Assembly: GCA_002245135.1 (NCBI GenBank)
Contig: NGBS01000292.1
Span: 496,001-560,000, forward strand
DNA: 64,000 bases
From: Proteromonas lacertae
Lineage: Eukaryota
Direction: 5' to 3'
A model generated the notes under the pieces. It ran no database searches, was not told the origin of the DNA, and saw only the letters and a list, made by a program, of their open reading frames with translations. A program made the position numbers and the translations under genes. Shown here piece after piece: positions 45,711-58,542 of the stretch (position 1 is its first letter; each line of letters begins with the position of its first letter).

Positions 45711-46361
45711 CTATAATTTCTCTCCAAATGCTATATCTCCTGCATCTCCCATTCCAGGATCTATATAAAACTTATCAGTTAGTTTTTCATCAAGATCTCC
45801 AATCCATAAGGTATAAGGTTCTCCTTTTAATTGTTCATTAACATAATCTACTCCTTGTCTTGATGCTAAAATACAAGCAATATGTGTATGTTTTGGTTTT
45901 CCTCCTTGTTTTAGTAGTTCATAATAAGCTTTTACCATTGAACCACCTGTAGCTAACATAGGATCAACTAACATGAGTATTTTACCATCAAGCGATGGAG
46001 TATAAACTGAATCATATCTTATTCCAACTGTTTTGTCTGGGTTGTAGAATCTTCTTGCGGATACAAATGAATTTCCTGCCATATCGAAAAACTTCAGAAA
46101 TCCTTCATGAAATGGAAGACCAGCTCTTAGAACAGATCCAATAACAACTTGATCTTTCAAAGTCATCACTTTTGCCTTGTTTACAGGAGTTTCAATTTCT
46201 TTCTCTTCGTATTCAAGTGTTTTGCTTATTTCATACGACATAATTTCAGCAACTCTCTCAATATTGGTACGATATCTCATTCTGTCGGGCTGTATTTCTT
46301 TATTTCGTAGTTCGGCTAAAAACTGACTACAAATGGAATTAGTTTTTGCTATTATATTCAT
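45711..46361 (-). CDS. upp: Uracil phosphoribosyltransferase, intronless, Bacteroidota-type
   Basis: VLRAGLPFHEGF, PRPP-binding LVDPMLATGGS and YIDPGMGDAGDIAFGEK. The N-terminal NSICSQFLAELRNKEIQPDRMRYRTNIERVAEIMSYEISKTL is typical of Bacteroidota Upp. Confidence 0.95.
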   Translation of the reverse strand: MNIIAKTNSICSQFLAELRNKEIQPDRMRYRTNIERVAEIMSYEISKTLEYEEKEIETPVNKAKVMTLKDQVVIGSVLRAGLPFHEGFLKFFDMAGNSFVSARRFYNPDKTVGIRYDSVYTPSLDGKILMLVDPMLATGGSMVKAYYELLKQGGKPKHTHIACILASRQGVDYVNEQLKGEPYTLWIGDLDEKLTDKFYIDPGMGDAGDIAFGEKL

Positions 46362-52300: not shown

Positions 52301-55300
52301 TTTCTATTCAGATATTGGTGAATGTGGAATAGGATTAAAACTCTATGTTACTTATGATTATCCAAGTCAATTAGATGAAAATTTGGTTTTCTTAACATTT
52401 CAGTTAGAATATCCTTGTGATTCACTTGTTTGTTTTAAGGATTACGAAGATATGAAGAAGGGGAAATTATTATCTTATCCAATGTTTGTGTTAAATAATA
52501 AATATAAAATTGCATGTAATGATGTAGAATATAAAGTGAATGTTATTAGTTTTGATAATAATTCAAGTCAATATAAGTGTTATGCAAATTCCAGTTTTGG
52601 TGAATTAGTAGGTTATATTTGTAGATATGAGAATAAAACTCATTTATTTTTTCATACAAAGAACAATCGAATTGAAGGATATCATTTTACTCAAGCAAAG
52701 CATAAAAGAATAGAAAATGAATTAAACAATTATAAATTAAAGCATAATAAAGAAGAGGAAGATGTTTTTTTAATGCCATATGATTTATCTACTAAGTATG
52801 AATCTGACGATGATAAAGGTATTTTTATTGAAATTACATCAATAAAAGAAACTGATGATTTTCAGGTTTTGATTTCAAAAAGAAGTCAAAAGGAAGTAAC
52901 CATGTTTGTTTATATTATATCTTTTTTTAGTATTTCTTTGACAGTTTATTAGTTATTTTAATAATGAAGCTTATGGTGAATGTTTATTTGCTGAAAAATA
53001 TTACAGTAATAACAAAAATAAAGTGTTTGGTGTTGATATTATAGAAAAGACATGTATATTCGGAGATCATAGCTATAAAGACTATGTATATATATCATTT
53101 ACATTTGGATATAGGATTTATTTAAGAATATAAAAGGAGAAATGGGTAATAAAGTAAAGAGTTTTGTTTATCATTTAGATAATAGAATTAATAAAAATGA
53201 AGGTGGAAATATGATAGAAACAGTATATATATTATTAATAATGTTATGTGAATAGTATAAAAGATATAAACACTTTTCAATTAAAGAATATTTAGAATTT
53301 TATGAAGGTAAAGTAGGTAATAGTTTCATTATTCAATCAAAATATAAAGTATGAATATTTTGATTTTTAATTATAAATAGTTTATAATTCCTGAAGAAAG
53401 AATTAATTATTATGGTGATAAATCTTCCATTTTAGTTGCTATATCCTTTGAATATAATAATACATCAAAATCTTACATTCGAGATTCTTCAGAGAAATGG
53501 AGATGTGATGGTGTTGGTAAATTGATTGACTTTAATGAAGTAATAAATGAATCATTCAATGAAATGTCTTCTCATTTTAAAACTTTAAAGAATAAATATT
53601 ATTTATATATTGATGAGAGTGTAATTCCTAAATGTTGCTGTAATTTACCTGAAATTCATATGATTCCATTTACAGAATCAATGAAATTAGAAGATTATAT
53701 TTCTCCTGATTATGATTCGTTGAAGATATATATTCAATCTGATGAATTTAAATATCAAAGTGAAGAATTAGAAAAGTTTAAAAATGATAAACAATACAAA
53801 CAAATTCAAGAAATTCCTGATAATAAAGAAAAATGTGGTTATTTAGGATGTGAAGTTGTGAAATTAAACAAACAAAATACTTTTGTTAATAGAAACAACA
53901 GTAATACAAATGTTATAACAAACTATCATAATTATACTACTAATAATAATATTCAGTCAAACAATAATACTAACACTAATGATAATACAAATTGTTTGAA
54001 TAAAATCAATGGTTTACTTACAGCTACAGGGTTTAATACCAACAATAATAACATGAATAATATATCACCAACACAAGGAAATCCTGGCGAAACAAGTAGT
54101 GGCGTTGTAGATAATAAGTTATATTATCATACTCAAGATGGTAAATATTATGAATATACAGGTAGTACATATGGAATTCTTCAAGATGATTATATTTATA
54201 AAAGAATTGGAGAAAATCAATACGAAAAATTACAAAAAATGTCAGAATATACATCACCATCCTCATCATCATCATCATCAAAGGATATAGTTTTATTACC
54301 ACCACAACAACCACAACCACAACAACAACAACAAACAAACAACCACAACAACAACAACAACAACAACAACACAACAACAAACAACAACCACAACAACCAA
54401 CAAACAACAACAACCAACAACAACAACAGTTTCAATCACAACAATTTCAACCAAGGTATAAACCCAACAACATCAAAATGCAATCACCCTCAACCACAAC
54501 AACAACAATCACAACAACCACAACCACAACCAACAACAACAATCACAACAACAATCACAACCACAAACAACAACCACAAACAACAACCACAACAACAACA
54601 ACAACAACCAACAACAACACAACAAACCAACAATCACAACAACAATCACAATCAACCAACCAACCAACAACCAACAACAACAATCACAACAACCAACAAT
54701 CAAATCAACAACAATCAAATCAAAGACCAATAATCTTGATAAAGCCTAATCAAAATAGAAATAAAATAACCTCAAATTCATCATCGGAATCATCAACTAC
54801 AGTATCTCAACCACAGTATCAACCACAACAAGTTAAAACAGATGTATATGATGATCAACCAAATTACAATTTCAGCTATAATGGATAAACTTTCTATTCA
54901 TATACTAAAGAGAATCTTAAGCTATTACTGTAATAATACTTCTTGACAAATATTTATATAAATATATAAATGGAAAATATGAACTACTATATTTTTATTC
55001 AACAGTTGAAGGAAAAATGCATCGATATTCTTATGGATCAATTACAGAACATCCTACAAAAAATTATGACATATATTATTATGAGAACAACTGTAGTAAC
55101 CTTCCTATCAAATGTGGTAGAGTTGCTGAATTTGATCAGAATGTTAATCCATCAAACAACCCACCAGTTAATTATCCACAACAACAACAACAACAACAGT
55201 TTCAATCACAACAATTTCAACAAGGTATAAACCAACAACATCAAATGCAATCACCTCAACCACCACCACCACCACCTCCTCCTCCTCCTGCTGCACCTCC

Positions 55301-55748
55301 ATCACTTCCTCCTCTGCAACAACATCAACAACAGCAAATACAACAACAACAAAAATTCTTACCACCAATCAATACTACTTCAACGAATTATAACACTCCT
55401 CTTTCAAATCCTGTTGTTTATCCAAATCAAGTGTTATATTATGTTGGAAAAAGTGGTAATATTTGTCAGTATAATAATCTATTAACAGAACAGCCATTAG
55501 GTTATGAGTTGTATTCAATAGATAATAATGGATATTATCATTTGAATTCTTATTTACCAAACACAGATTCTAGAACAACATATAATGAATACCACCTGGT
55601 TATCAATTCGTATATTTAGGAGTAGATGGTAAGACGTTTAATTGGTGGAATGAAGAAAATATAAAAAGATTCCCCCCAGCTGGTAGAGATATATATGGAT
55701 ATAATGAAAAATATGGATATATATTCACTAATTATTATTTTTGAATGA
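49360..55748 (+). CDS. Very large uncharacterised multi-exon gene (possibly more than one) ending in Tyr-rich modules separated by polyQ/polyP linkers
   Basis: A continuous chain of + strand ORFs joined by short GT-AG introns; no family motif recognised. Confidence 0.45.
54300..54730 (+). repeat. (CAA)n-rich coding microsatellite (polyQ), poorly resolved
   Basis: Degenerate caa/cca/aca run. A roughly 75-bp block at about 54420 recurs at about 55190. Confidence 0.8.
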
Positions 55749-55886
55749 CTGCATTAGATTATTTGTTTGAAAATAACATCCCATCACAAAAACAATACAT
55801 AAATAAACAATTATAAATTACTTAATACCACATCTTAACTAATTTACAAATCTAATTATCTATATACAATATATAAACATAATTCT

Positions 55887-55911
<25 letters not shown>

Positions 55912-55917
<6 letters not shown>

Positions 55918-55985
55918 AGAGAATTAACTGTTTGTTCTTCAACTTTTATTTAGTCAGAACAGGTCTGTTAGTATCATCATTTTAA
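55912..55985 (-). ncRNA. Box C/D snoRNA, SNORD25/snR56-like (left-arm copy)
   Basis: Reverse complement of the 57786-57858 copy. Confidence 0.85.
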
Positions 55986-56025
55986 ATATATATTATTATT
56001 ATTATTCATTTTATTTATTTATTAT

Positions 56026-56090
56026 TATATCAGAGACTTAAGTAAAATTATCATTAATTCATTTTCATCTCTTTCTTTAGCATCATTTAT
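56026..56090 (-). ncRNA. Box C/D snoRNA (left-arm copy of 57677-57741)
   Basis: Reverse complement of the right-arm copy. Confidence 0.65.
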
Positions 56091-56155
56091 TTCTCATAAT
56101 AAATAAATAAATATCTTAAAATGATGATGAAGAGGTTTATTATTATTATTATTAT

Positions 56156-56241
56156 TGTATCAGATAAGTACACACTATATACCAATCATTATAAATCAGA
56201 ATGAGCTGGGTTAATAGCAAAAGTGCAAATCATCAGAACAA
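56156..56241 (-). ncRNA. Box C/D snoRNA, snR71/SNORD29-like (left-arm copy)
   Basis: Reverse complement of 57526-57612. Confidence 0.85.
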
Positions 56242-56262
56242 TTATAATAATATTAGTAAGTA

Positions 56263-56349
56263 ATTGAATCAGATTTAAAAACGTTAAGTTCTCTTTCATA
56301 ATATTTCAGAGAGCTGGGTTAATAGCTAAACGCAAATCATCATTTCAAT
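56263..56349 (-). ncRNA. Box C/D snoRNA, snR69-like (LSU Cm2948 equivalent), unique to the left arm
   Basis: The minus strand reads AUGAUGA...AACCCAGCUCU-CUGA...AUGAAAG...CUGA with terminal stem AAUUGAA/UUCAAUU. The guide pairs with LSU GAGCUGGGUU and the +5 rule gives the C of GAGC. Confidence 0.85.
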
Positions 56350-56438
56350 TAATTAAGATAAGACATATATAATACATACTCTTAATTCTAGAAGATCTAT
56401 CTCGACATGTAGTTAATTCTTTTCTATAAAAATAAAAT

Positions 56439-56674
56439 AAATATGATATTTCTATGGTATTTCTCAACTCATTAATGCTACATAGTAACTTGAGAGAGAT
56501 TAGGAATATAGAAAACAAAAAGAGGAGCAACCAAATAAATGATGCTCACTGATTTAGTTTTTATAGGATTTATTAATGTTGACGCCCTTTACCTCATTGA
56601 AATATAAGGCGGCATCAACGACAGTTCAATGACTATTCCCGAAGAAACAACCATATAAACCATCACAAATCCAG
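56439..56674 (-). ncRNA. snR30/U17 H/ACA processing snoRNA (left copy)
   Basis: Reverse complement of 57011-57246. Confidence 0.8.
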
Positions 56675-56892
56675 ATTGAGAAGTGTTCAGATTTAGAATT
56701 TAAATTAAAACAATATGAAAGAAGAAAAGCAACAACAATAAGATAATAGAGAATGATATATACCTTCTAAAAAAGAAAAAAGAAAAAAAGAAGAAATGAT
56801 TTAGAAATGCAAAAAACTATTCGTTACAAATTGCATTATCATTTCAATTTAGAAAAATGTCATTTTTGGTATGTATATTGTCTTGATTCTAT

Positions 56893-56989
56893 AAGAGAGT
56901 AATGAAATTAAACTGTGACCACTCCTACTATCCCAACTAAATGGTGTGAGGACCAGCTATACGTCACCACCCAAATACGAACTCTCCTT
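56893..56989 (+). ncRNA. Structured, relatively GC-rich small RNA with 18S helix-34-flanking complementarity (snR4-like candidate)
   Basis: Terminal stem GAGAGU/ACUCUC with kink-turn-like AAU-GA/GA geometry; internal GUGAC/GUCAC and UCCU/AGGA stems; C'-like GUGAGGA; segments antisense to conserved 18S sequences. Boxes C and D are non-canonical. Confidence 0.5.
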
Positions 56990-57010
56990 TTATATATATA
57001 CTTTATTAAC

Positions 57011-57246
57011 CTGGATTTGTGATGGTTTATATGGTTGTTTCTTCGGGAATAGTCATTGAACTGTCGTTGATGCCGCCTTATATTTCAATGAGGTAAAGGG
57101 CGTCAACATTAATAAATCCTATAAAAACTAAATCAGTGAGCATCATTTATTTGGTTGCTCCTCTTTTTGTTTTCTATATTCCTAATCTCTCTCAAGTTAC
57201 TATGTAGCATTAATGAGTTGAGAAATACCATAGAAATATCATATTT
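57011..57246 (+). ncRNA. snR30/U17 H/ACA processing snoRNA (right copy)
   Basis: A 5' hairpin closed by GGAUUU/AAAUCC is followed by H box AUAAAA (57121-57126). The 3' hairpin closed by UUUCU/AGAAA carries exact motif m1 AUAUUCCUA (57176-57184) and m2-like AAUACCAU (57224-57231). It ends in an AUA variant of the ACA box. Confidence 0.8.
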
Positions 57247-57344
57247 ATTTTATTTTTATAGAAGAGAATGCATAATGATATGACTAATCATTGAATTTTG
57301 AGAATGAATGAAAGGTATATTATAATATTACGATCTTTACTTAT

Positions 57345-57405
57345 TGCTCTGAGGAAAATATCGCAAGTATTACTTAATCGTGATTCAATTCTGCAATTCT
57401 GAGCA
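57345..57405 (+). ncRNA. Box C/D snoRNA guiding the 5.8S Gm75 equivalent (SNORD96-like), unique to the right arm
   Basis: Terminal stem UGCUC/GAGCA; box C UGAGGA; guide AAUUCUGCAAUU-CUGA antisense to 5.8S AAUUGCAGAAUU, +5 = G. An extra UAUCGCA matches 5.8S UGCGAUA. Confidence 0.85.
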
Positions 57406-57436
57406 TTTTCTTTCTAAATGTCTAATAACTGTAAAA

Positions 57437-57503
57437 TAATGGGATGTATTTGAGTATTGGGCTATGAATAATATAAATGATTCTACCATACAATACTGAT
57501 TAT
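57437..57503 (+). ncRNA. Possible box C/D snoRNA with a degenerate box C and no recognised target
   Basis: UAAU/AUUA ends, D' AUGA, C' AUGAUUC, D CUGA (57496-57499); lies inside the cluster. Confidence 0.4.
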
Positions 57504-57525
57504 TATTTTATAACTAATATTATAA

Positions 57526-57612
57526 TTGTTCTGATGATTTGCACTTTTGCTATTAACCCAGCTCATTCTGATTTATAATGATTGGTATATAGTGTGTACT
57601 TATCTGATACAA
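57526..57612 (+). ncRNA. Box C/D snoRNA, snR71/SNORD29-like (LSU Am2946 equivalent)
   Basis: C UGAUGA at 57532, D' CUGA at 57568, C' AUGAUUG, D CUGA at 57604. Guide AACCCAGCUCA pairs with LSU UGAGCUGGGUU; +5 = A. Confidence 0.85.
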
Positions 57613-57676
57613 TAATAATAATAATAATAAACCTCTTCATCATCATTTTAAGATATTTATTTATTTATTATGAGAA

Positions 57677-57741
57677 ATAAATGATGCTAAAGAAAGAGAT
57701 GAAAATGAATTAATGATAATTTTACTTAAGTCTCTGATATA
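57677..57741 (+). ncRNA. Box C/D snoRNA with a D' guide antisense to 18S CUCUUUCUU
   Basis: C AUGAUGC at 57681, guide AAGAAAGAG-AUGA, C' AUGAUAA, D CUGA at 57734. Conserved in both arms. Confidence 0.65.
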
Positions 57742-57785
57742 ATAATAAATAAATAAAATGAATATAATAATAATAATAATATATT

Positions 57786-57858
57786 TAAAATGATGATACT
57801 AACAGACCTGTTCTGACTAAATAAAAGTTGAAGAACAAACAGTTAATTCTCTGACTAT
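57786..57858 (+). ncRNA. Box C/D snoRNA, SNORD25/snR56-like (18S Gm in AACAG*GUCUGU)
   Basis: C AUGAUGA at 57790; guide ACAGACCUGUU-CUGA antisense to conserved 18S AACAGGUCUGU; C' UUGAAGA; D CUGA at 57851. Confidence 0.88.
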
Positions 57859-57889
<31 letters not shown>

Positions 57890-57996
57890 AGAATTATGTT
57901 TATATATTGTATATAGATAATTAGATTTGTAAATAAATTAAGATGTAGAATATAGAGAGATGTTTATAATAAAGGTATATATATATATATTATAAA

Positions 57997-58068
57997 TATA
58001 AATGATGATAAATCCATGCGCGTCGTTTGATATTCAGATGATAATAGATTGGTTATAATCTGATATAT
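57997..58068 (+). ncRNA. Box C/D snoRNA, snR64/SNORD74-like (LSU Cm2337 equivalent)
   Basis: C AUGAUGA at 58002; guide CAUGCGCGUCG then D' UUGA, antisense to LSU UGACGCGCAUG; C' AUGAUAA; D CUGA at 58060. Confidence 0.85.
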
Positions 58069-58080
58069 ATATATATATAT

Positions 58081-58153
58081 AATTATTATGATGAGAAAAA
58101 AGCGCTTGAAATATAACACCCATGTAAGTACTTTTGTGAAATCCTGAATAATT
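58081..58153 (+). ncRNA. Box C/D snoRNA, predicted LSU helix-91 target
   Basis: Terminal stem AAUUAU/AUAAUU; C AUGAUGA at 58088; guide UUUGUGAAAUC-CUGA at 58144. Confidence 0.75.
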
Positions 58154-58309
58154 ATATATATATAATATCTTAAATATATATGAGAATATAATATATATTA
58201 TTTATAGATTTAAAAAGGTTAAATAATAGCAAAAGAATTTAATTTTTACAAAAGTTAATGTATGTATATATTTATTGACTTATCTATTTATAACTATGTT
58301 ATTATTATT

Positions 58310-58383
58310 ATTGAGGTGAAGATATCTTCATAAGCGCTAATTTGATATTGAAATGAAACAGATTTGTGAAATCTCTGATCAAT
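58310..58383 (+). ncRNA. Box C/D snoRNA, paralog of 58081-58153 with the guide shifted by 1 nt
   Basis: Stem AUUGA/UCAAU; C GUGAAGA; shared AAGCGCU; guide UUUGUGAAAUCU-CUGA at 58375. Confidence 0.75.
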
Positions 58384-58397
58384 TAATAATAACAACT

Positions 58398-58542
58398 ACA
58401 AAACATAATTTATATCTCTCTATTGTTGATTTATTATATAGCAGAGATTTATATATGTTTTTGTTATATAAAATACTACTCCTCTGCTTCAAACAATAGA
58501 ATCTTAATTAATGATTTTCTTGTGATCAACTCTGGAACATTA
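58398..58542 (+). ncRNA. Box H/ACA snoRNA; the 3' pocket is predicted to pseudouridylate LSU AUCAU[U]GUGAAGCAGA
   Basis: Hairpin 1 closed by ACAAAACAUA/UAUGUUUUUGU; H box AUAUAA at 58466; hairpin 2 closed by UCC/GGA with pocket strands UCUGCUUCA and GUGAU. The 3' pocket strand starts 15 nt before ACA (58537-58539). Confidence 0.75.

Follow-up and report, generated by a model that had tools for sequence, protein, structure and literature searches.

A 97-nt element on the plus strand of the window (the whole stretch of DNA analyzed, 64 kb in length) is a real feature, probably a box C/D-type RNA antisense to helix 34 of 18S rRNA. Its best reading, held tentatively, is a snoR32-like 2'-O-methylation guide in which the pairing is extended and the terminal boxes are degenerate, and for which U1262 or G1263 (yeast numbering) is the methylation site predicted from the sequence. 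An earlier note on this DNA had proposed an analog of yeast snR4, the guide for acetylation of C1280; of this proposal, a snoRNA-like RNA that is antisense to helix 34 and covers both snR4 sites stands, whereas the layout that defines snR4 is absent. Acetylation is possible but less economical as a reading. Judged strictly, the element falls into neither snoR32 nor snR4, and it works most plausibly like snoR32. Under the methylation reading the find is a modest one: a helix-34 methylation guide of the plant type, here in a distant protist, which stands out for its degenerate boxes and for pairing that extends across about 54 nt of 18S rRNA. Under either reading it offers a single locus at which methylation and acetylation jobs can be told apart by mapping the two marks.

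Structural Features of the Candidate RNA

The motifs C, D', C', and D follow each other along the element in the normal order (Table 1), and the motifs named in the earlier note (CACTCC, CCAACTAA, GTGAGGA, CACCACCCA, and both stem arms) lie where it had placed them. The terminal stem GAGAGU/ACUCUC that it described is strongly predicted, and the kink-turn-like closure was likewise found, with an AAU bulge and tandem GA/GA pairs on the 6-bp terminal stem, as in the closing stem of a box C/D RNA; the pairs past GA/GA are poor. Its caution regarding noncanonical boxes C and D was well placed. In the case of box C, the GUAAUGA register (56899-905), which is the one used in the Rfam alignment, agrees with RUGAUGA at 6 of 7 positions and has the first sheared G replaced by A, and the AUGAAAU register (56902-08) agrees at 4 of 7 and sets a 3-nt bulge and the tandem GA flush with the 6-bp stem. 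Folding supports the register with intact stem, bulge, and tandem GA, features which under the kink-turn rules are the ground for expecting Snu13 to bind. On this model, Snu13 binding to the element is plausible, while full assembly is doubtful. At the position of box D, ACGA or CGAA takes the place of CUGA, and CUGA does not occur 40-130 nt downstream of GUGAGGA. The main guide terminates 3-4 nt 5' of this position, at the closing stem. Internally, CUAA and GUGAGGA read naturally as the D' and C' motifs of a C/D RNA, but such short motifs weigh little.

Table 1. Coordinates of the candidate RNA, its motifs, and adjacent features (18S positions in yeast numbering, pairing with the proxy 18S)
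Feature	Position	Strand	Remarks
Candidate box C/D-like snoRNA gene	56893..56989	+	Ends set from the terminal stem; weak Rfam match to snoZ43 at 56894-56985
Terminal stem, 5' arm	56895..56900	+	Partner 56981-56986; pair probabilities 0.93-1.0
Terminal stem, 3' arm	56981..56986	+	Pair probabilities 0.93-1.0
Box C position	56899..56908	+	Two registers, GUAAUGA 56899-905 or AUGAAAU 56902-08
Fourth antisense block	56906..56919	+	Pairs with 18S 1304-1315, two wobbles; AAUUAA 56906-11 exact to 1310-1315
Antisense block CACUCC	56920..56925	+	Pairs with 18S 1294-1299
Antisense block CCAACTAA	56933..56940	+	Pairs with 18S 1285-1292; holds AACUA (= snR4 5' guide)
D'-like CUAA	56937-40	+	3' end of the CCAACTAA block
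C'-like GUGAGGA	56946..56952	+	5 nt past the D'-like CUAA; UGAGGA variant as in box C of snR4 and in the neighbor's box C at 57349
Wobble extension of main guide	56956..56964	+	Faces 18S 1271-1279: 5 Watson-Crick pairs, 3 G-U pairs, mismatch at C1274
Main guide, including CACCACCCA	56965..56973	+	Exact to 18S 1262-1270; 56960-73 agrees at 12/14 with the Z43 consensus D guide
Box D position, noncanonical	56977..56981	+	ACGA 56977-80 (kink-turn register, D+5 opposite G1263) or CGAA 56978-81 (Rfam register, D+5 opposite U1262)
Right inner arm of inverted repeat, with U17/snR30-like H/ACA RNA	57003..57269	+	99% copy at 56416-56682, minus strand; partial SNORA73 match, E 0.013, below gathering
5' splice-site-like GTATGT	56869..56874	+	Motif scan

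The description of the element as unusually GC-rich is borne out by a GC content of 0.42, compared with 0.22 in the rest of the spacer and 0.28-0.35 in five neighboring snoRNA-like pieces. Its fold z-score is only -1.15. The earlier note also listed an internal hairpin; one around GUGAGG has a predicted probability of 0.01 when the RNA is free and of 0.30-0.37 within the complex, as against 0.8 for GUGAC/GUCAC. As to copy number, CACCACCCA was found once in the window with one mismatch allowed.

Complementarity to 18S rRNA Helix 34

The target was the 18S fragment on a contig of an unrelated eukaryote (L001), which served as a proxy for the organism's own 18S rRNA and closely resembles the Rfam consensus across the paired stretch. 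Yeast 18S numbering was transferred by means of the S1 Table of PMC5464676, in which the 23-mer ending in the CCG loop corresponds to 1262-1284. On this proxy, the plus strand of the element pairs exactly with 1262-1270 and at 8 of 9 positions with 1271-1279, places an A facing C1280, and continues with 1285-1292, 1294-1299, and 1304-1315; about 45 of the 54 positions of 1262-1315 are able to pair. At the other end of the main guide, A56974 stands opposite A1261, resulting in an A-A mismatch on the proxy and leaving U1262 at the helix end. The wobble extension stops one base short of C1280. In the predicted complex, C1279 is paired with a probability of 0.99 and C1280 with one of 0.01 (unpaired 0.99), the latter lying in a bulge of 1 nt (62%) or 5 nt (about 37%) that would grow to 14 nt if the wobble extension does not form.

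The antiparallel order of the blocks on 18S rRNA claimed in the earlier note is therefore seen on the proxy, and the pairing is longer than it had supposed, by the fourth block and the wobble extension. The overlap with the snR4 sites is also tighter than stated there, with AACUA equal to the 5' guide, UCACCACC in the second-guide region, and a UGAGGA variant serving as box C of snR4 as well. On the other hand, the stretch between the guides pairs as well, and the wide loop around C1280 that the proposal had envisaged is not predicted. What had been missed is that the strongest match immediately precedes box D, placed and spaced as in plant snoR32/Z43, a mapped methylation guide, along with the D' and C' reading of CUAA and GUGAGGA and the frequency of extra pairing among methylation guides.

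Several controls were applied to this complementarity. The local alignment to 601 nt of 18S rRNA was matched by 3 of 5000 dinucleotide shuffles, the duplex energy against the 61-nt target was reached in 2 of 1000 shuffles, and the chain of exact blocks was reached in 5 of 5000 mononucleotide shuffles. Given the main guide, shuffles equaled the extra blocks in 11 of 5000 cases, a figure that rises to 33 of 5000 when D' and C' are kept constant; for the wobble extension the figure is 204 of 100,000. In contrast, the longest single extra block is not unusual (368 of 5000), the duplex energy against the full 601 nt is weaker (24 of 300), and the net cofold energy falls short of significance (44 of 500); a cofold that imposes the terminal stem yields no information, since nested folding cannot pair within a closed loop. 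Ranked among 12,782 tiles of the window, the element shares the top alignment score (51 vs 51) and leads in chain score by a single point (29 vs 28). All match scores were selected after the element had been seen. Considering that the controls speak both for and against and that the scores are post hoc, the match exceeds chance for an element taken from a snoRNA cluster and would be unremarkable in a blind 64-kb scan. In the comparison with shuffled sequences that the earlier note had suggested, made here on the proxy, the match stands out by alignment, 61-nt duplex, and block chain, and less so by full-length duplex and cofold.

Proposed Placement as a snoR32/Z43-Type Methylation Guide

A low-stringency Rfam scan of the spacer returned three matches, one of which is snoZ43 (RF00330), with model positions 1-100 of 100 on 56894-56985. 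At an E-value of 4.5 and 14.3 bits against a gathering score of 43, this match is at chance level, and its alignment puts the terminal stem, box C, CUAA, GUGAGGA, guide, and box D in register. Within the 14 nt of the guide, the Z43 consensus and the element differ at two positions, both of which still pair, and an A stands opposite C1274 in both. Z43's second guide, the D' guide for A1327 (old Arabidopsis numbering), is absent from the alignment. The snoZ43 match owes much to the common target, and it does not demonstrate homology with Z43.

Z43 is SnoR32, whose target in Arabidopsis 18S rRNA, U1266 (U1263 in the old numbering), carries a mapped methylation with a level of about 0.97 (PMC8053127). 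In this region the old Arabidopsis numbering exceeds that of yeast by one (U1270 = Um1269 and Gm1272 = Gm1271 in PMC8351944 Supplementary Table 3), and therefore old U1263 is yeast U1262. The RNA is reported across land plants (PMC5122169). Similar to plant snoR32/snoZ43 (RF00330; Arabidopsis 18S Um1266, old 1263, and Am1330, old 1327), the element has a length near 100 nt, the same box order and spacing, a D guide alike at 12 of 14 positions, a D+5 position that in one of its registers falls on this uridine too, and an AUGGU...ACCA pair around C'. It differs in that its Rfam score is far below gathering, its boxes C and D are noncanonical, a second-site guide is lacking, and three extra blocks to 1285-1315 are present that are absent from the Z43 consensus.

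For box C/D methylation guides, the D+5 rule is established. The placement of the element as a methylation guide draws on this geometry: a methylation guide must sit at D+5, whereas an acetylation guide need not. Its mode of action may be pictured as follows. The element would be cut from an intron along with the U17-like RNA, as splice-like motifs suggest, and the bulge and tandem GA pairs of its closing stem may bind Snu13 despite the poor boxes. The guide 5' of box D would then pair with 18S 1262-1273, judging from complementarity on the proxy, and fibrillarin would methylate the base opposite D+5. The blocks to 1285-1299 and 1304-1315 could act as extra grips that keep the neighboring strand open for guide entry, by analogy with published extra pairing; extra pairs of 7-15 bp are described at 45 of 104 Arabidopsis sites, more than half of them adjoining the primary duplex, with three such pairs in each of two snoRNAs (PMC8053127). 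Against the methylation reading, U1262 would end the helix owing to the A-A mismatch at 1261 on the proxy, compared with 100 of 104 Arabidopsis guide duplexes that the same source gives as mismatch-free.

Other C/D guides act on the same helix-34 strand, including snR55/U33, snR40/U32, and Dictyostelium CD20, the last with a noncanonical box D. Their targets are 1269, 1271, and about 1260, respectively, and D+5 of the element is 1262 or 1263. According to PMC8817022, Dictyostelium methylates U1255 in the same neighborhood via a snoRNA with a noncanonical AUGA box D, which guides a site about two bases away. In the same source, all 48 tabulated Dictyostelium C/D RNAs, a set selected by a box-scoring program, keep UGA at box D positions 2-4 (41 CUGA, 7 AUGA).

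Comparison with Acetylation Guides

Yeast snR4 guides Kre33 to ac4C1280, with nt 1-5 on 18S 1286-1290 and nt 142-149 on 1264-1271, as described in PMC5464676. In that description, the first guide lies 5' of box C, both boxes follow the consensus, and the target lies in a 9-11 nt bulge; the RNA starts with AACUA, AUGAGGA follows across a spacer of 9 nt, and UCACCACC is found near nt 143-150. A pseudoknot that joins the two guides is a further feature of snR4. A yeast cofactor is added in PMC12848939, and snR4 is given as present in three fungal lineages in PMC5824354. No snR4 homolog is known in humans according to PMC9670809, and guide dependence of helix-34 acetylation is shown only in S. cerevisiae, the question being called open (PMC9226516). 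A literature search, with most subscription papers outside its reach, found no non-fungal helix-34 acetylation guide.

That the element is an snR4-like guide bringing NAT10 to C1280, either alone or besides methylation, is unlikely. In this account, an RNA of intronic origin could not retain a guide 5' of box C; AACUA would instead have been relocated to the interior, leaving C1280 at a junction with one guide on either side. The proposal draws on coverage of both snR4 sites (1286-1290 and 1264-1271) on the proxy 18S and on C1280, which is predicted to be unpaired at 0.99 in the complex as it is in the snR4 pairing. It further draws on the words AACUA, UGAGGA, and UCACCACC, which occur in the same order in yeast snR4 and in the element, with the second guide between C' and D in both. 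With gaps fitted to the element, where the first two words are 6 nt apart (9 nt in snR4), the window contains a single instance of this three-word pattern, and none of 100 shuffles has it. However, the same pattern arises by chance at 11 phage and 29 bacterial loci. Two of the three words are partly box motifs (CUAA, UGAGGA), UGAGGA is also a neighbor's box C, and UCACCACC is the Z43 guide as well. The Z43 layout accounts for all three, because one is the methylation guide, one is C', and one ends in D'. A match at the second-guide site of snR4 is likewise not diagnostic, since this site overlaps ordinary methylation-guide sites.

The architecture also departs from that of known acetylation guides. 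Both snR4 and snR45 carry their first guide at the very 5' end, ahead of box C, and have canonical boxes and a long D'-C' helix, whereas in the element the first guide is located 40 nt in from the terminal stem, GUGAGGA is not closed by a stem as a box C would be, and the D'-C' helix is missing. At 97 nt, compared with 155-242 nt among snR4 models, it has about half the length of yeast snR4. Its pairing runs on to C1279 and beyond 1294, and C1280 would lie in a bulge of 1 or 5 nt rather than 9-11 nt, with C1279 of the CCG paired. A precedent for acetylation guides that resemble ordinary intronic C/D RNAs is provided by snR45/SNORD13 (U13), including the one-guide form in Diptera (PMC9226516); these target helix 45, unlike the element, and Rfam reported no sequence likeness. 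The poor C/D boxes may in turn signal that methylation is no longer the job. An intron-encoded non-fungal helix-34 acetylation guide of 97 nt, having a snoR32-type frame, an internalized 5' guide, relaxed boxes, and C1280 at a three-way junction, is likewise unlikely. Were it true, it would bear on the open question of a helix-34 guide beyond S. cerevisiae, with humans lacking a known snR4 homolog. It would also imply that snR4 itself descends from a methylation guide, because one octamer serves as both the snoR32 D guide and the second guide of snR4, and helix-34 methylation guides with extra pairing would be the place to look in other eukaryotes.

Other Explanations

Degenerate boxes could also mark a decayed or misassembled snoR32-like copy, in which the boxes are nonfunctional or bases have been dropped while the working gene is canonical or lies elsewhere. 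In favor, neither terminal box conforms to the consensus, with box D lacking one base of CUGA at the exact Z43 spacing, and the cluster has been duplicated and rearranged; the arms of the inverted repeat are distinguished by small indels in AT repeats, and an upstream glutamine-repeat gene changes frame. However, the element is the most GC-rich of seven pieces and keeps an intact stem as well as all four antisense blocks, which is not what neutral decay would leave in DNA of 26% GC, while long open frames nearby (801, 747, and 559 aa) speak against a high indel rate in unique DNA, and errors would be needed in both boxes. This explanation is improbable and is ranked after that of an acetylation guide. 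Ranked next is the view that the matches have no guide function and reflect either chance in a C-rich stretch or an old inverted rDNA scrap. The narrow lead of the element over other tiles of the window (51 vs 51; 29 vs 28) and the lack of an Rfam match at gathering score speak for this view, and the minus strand is colinear with 18S 1241-1320, with a sense 12-mer of 18S 1251-1262 just upstream. Against it stand the location in a snoRNA cluster and on the cluster's strand, the snoRNA-like size and stem, shuffle rates of 0.06-0.7% across several tests, and a match that falls on a known snoRNA target site at D+5 spacing.

The U3, U14, and snR190 RNAs act as holding RNAs in ribosome assembly. A comparable folding chaperone for the 18S 3' major domain, which makes no modification and holds 1262-1315 open during early assembly, perhaps together with its U17-like neighbor, would explain why about 45 of 54 positions can pair, far beyond the need of a methylation guide; the noncanonical boxes and the adjacent processing-type U17-like RNA also suit such a role. 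Nevertheless, the literature search found no helix-34 chaperone of this kind, the guide obeys D+5 geometry, and simultaneous pairing of all blocks within a closed loop appears topologically doubtful; a chaperone is the least probable of the explanations considered.

Database Searches and Rejected Assignments

No Rfam match at gathering score was found in the 64-kb window. The region 55600-58400 gave 30 weak matches, none on the element, and neither snR45 nor U13 was among the weak matches of the region or the spacer; the Rfam comparison that the earlier note had named as a check left plant snoZ43 as the weak match aligned along the whole element. A scan with the snR4-type pattern yielded 11 viral and 29 metagenome loci, and inspection of all 40 revealed none that is homolog-like. 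One 23-nt AT-rich blastn match links these loci with the cluster, and 20 of the 29 metagenome loci, when scanned with Rfam, gave no match. The three-block pattern returned eight bacterial loci (judged by titles) and no viral ones, with no homolog among them; exact-match patterns of this type would miss diverged homologs.

In addition, three other assignments were considered and rejected. A telomerase RNA was dismissed on the ground that the Blastocystis repeat in PMC8287931 is not templated by the element. Inspection by eye showed no H or ACA box and no upper stem between the blocks, which disposes of H/ACA and tRNA-like readings.

Genomic Context

The window consists of AT-rich eukaryotic DNA (GC 0.21-0.37 per kb) that encodes eukaryotic protein domains and contains short GT-AG introns, one of them 45 nt, with a length distribution mildly peaked at 25-34 nt. 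A low-GC gut protist such as Blastocystis or a related organism would suit this DNA, given the 21-23% GC and the longer, variable introns of some isolates described in PMC12129017; a gut ciliate is a further possibility, and a non-fungal source is probable. An inverted repeat at 55825-57951, with arms 94-100% alike, carries C/D-like RNAs and a U17-like H/ACA RNA. The two innermost arms are separated by a spacer of 320 nt that is not duplicated. The element sits at the right edge of this spacer rather than at the center of the palindrome where the earlier note had placed it, and lies 13 nt upstream of the right-arm U17-like RNA on the same strand. The top Rfam matches of the cluster neighbors are mostly box C/D families, all below gathering. 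If the GTATGT at 56869 is joined to an AG located at about 57261, the element and the U17-like RNA would share a single intron.

The cluster as a whole appears as a snoRNA cluster duplicated in inverted form, with four arm pairs, and the gaps that escaped duplication hold different snoRNAs. The start of the inner arm coincides precisely with the 5' end of the U17-like RNA, and the U17/snR30-like H/ACA RNAs at 57003-57250 (+) and 56682-56435 (-) are near-identical to each other. Three snR69-like C/D copies with one guide in common are found at 56267-56347 (-), 56153-56230 (-), and 57537-57614 (+), two of them adjacent on the left arm. A further C/D RNA at 57343-57405 (+) has CUGAGGA as box C, a canonical box D, and U54 as its top Rfam match (E 0.11); its guides appear complementary to 5.8S rRNA. 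At about 56763-56770 (-), TAG-AAG-GTATAT following a pyrimidine run resembles a 3-nt micro-exon in a non-coding host transcript. The sense 12-mer at 56881-56892, identical to 18S 1251-1262, lies directly 5' of the element and next to the element's target on 18S rRNA; it is one of three matches of 12 nt in the window and may be due to chance.

Farther from the element, a CAA-repeat tract at 54280-54750 (+) has a reading frame that shifts among Q, N, and T runs, which could reflect either assembly indels or a genuine frameshifted repeat. An intronless uracil phosphoribosyltransferase gene at 45711-46361 (-) has as its few named relatives proteins of gut Bacteroidota at 58-64% identity, groups in a clade of three with two other proteins in a quick tree, and is likely a transfer from bacteria.
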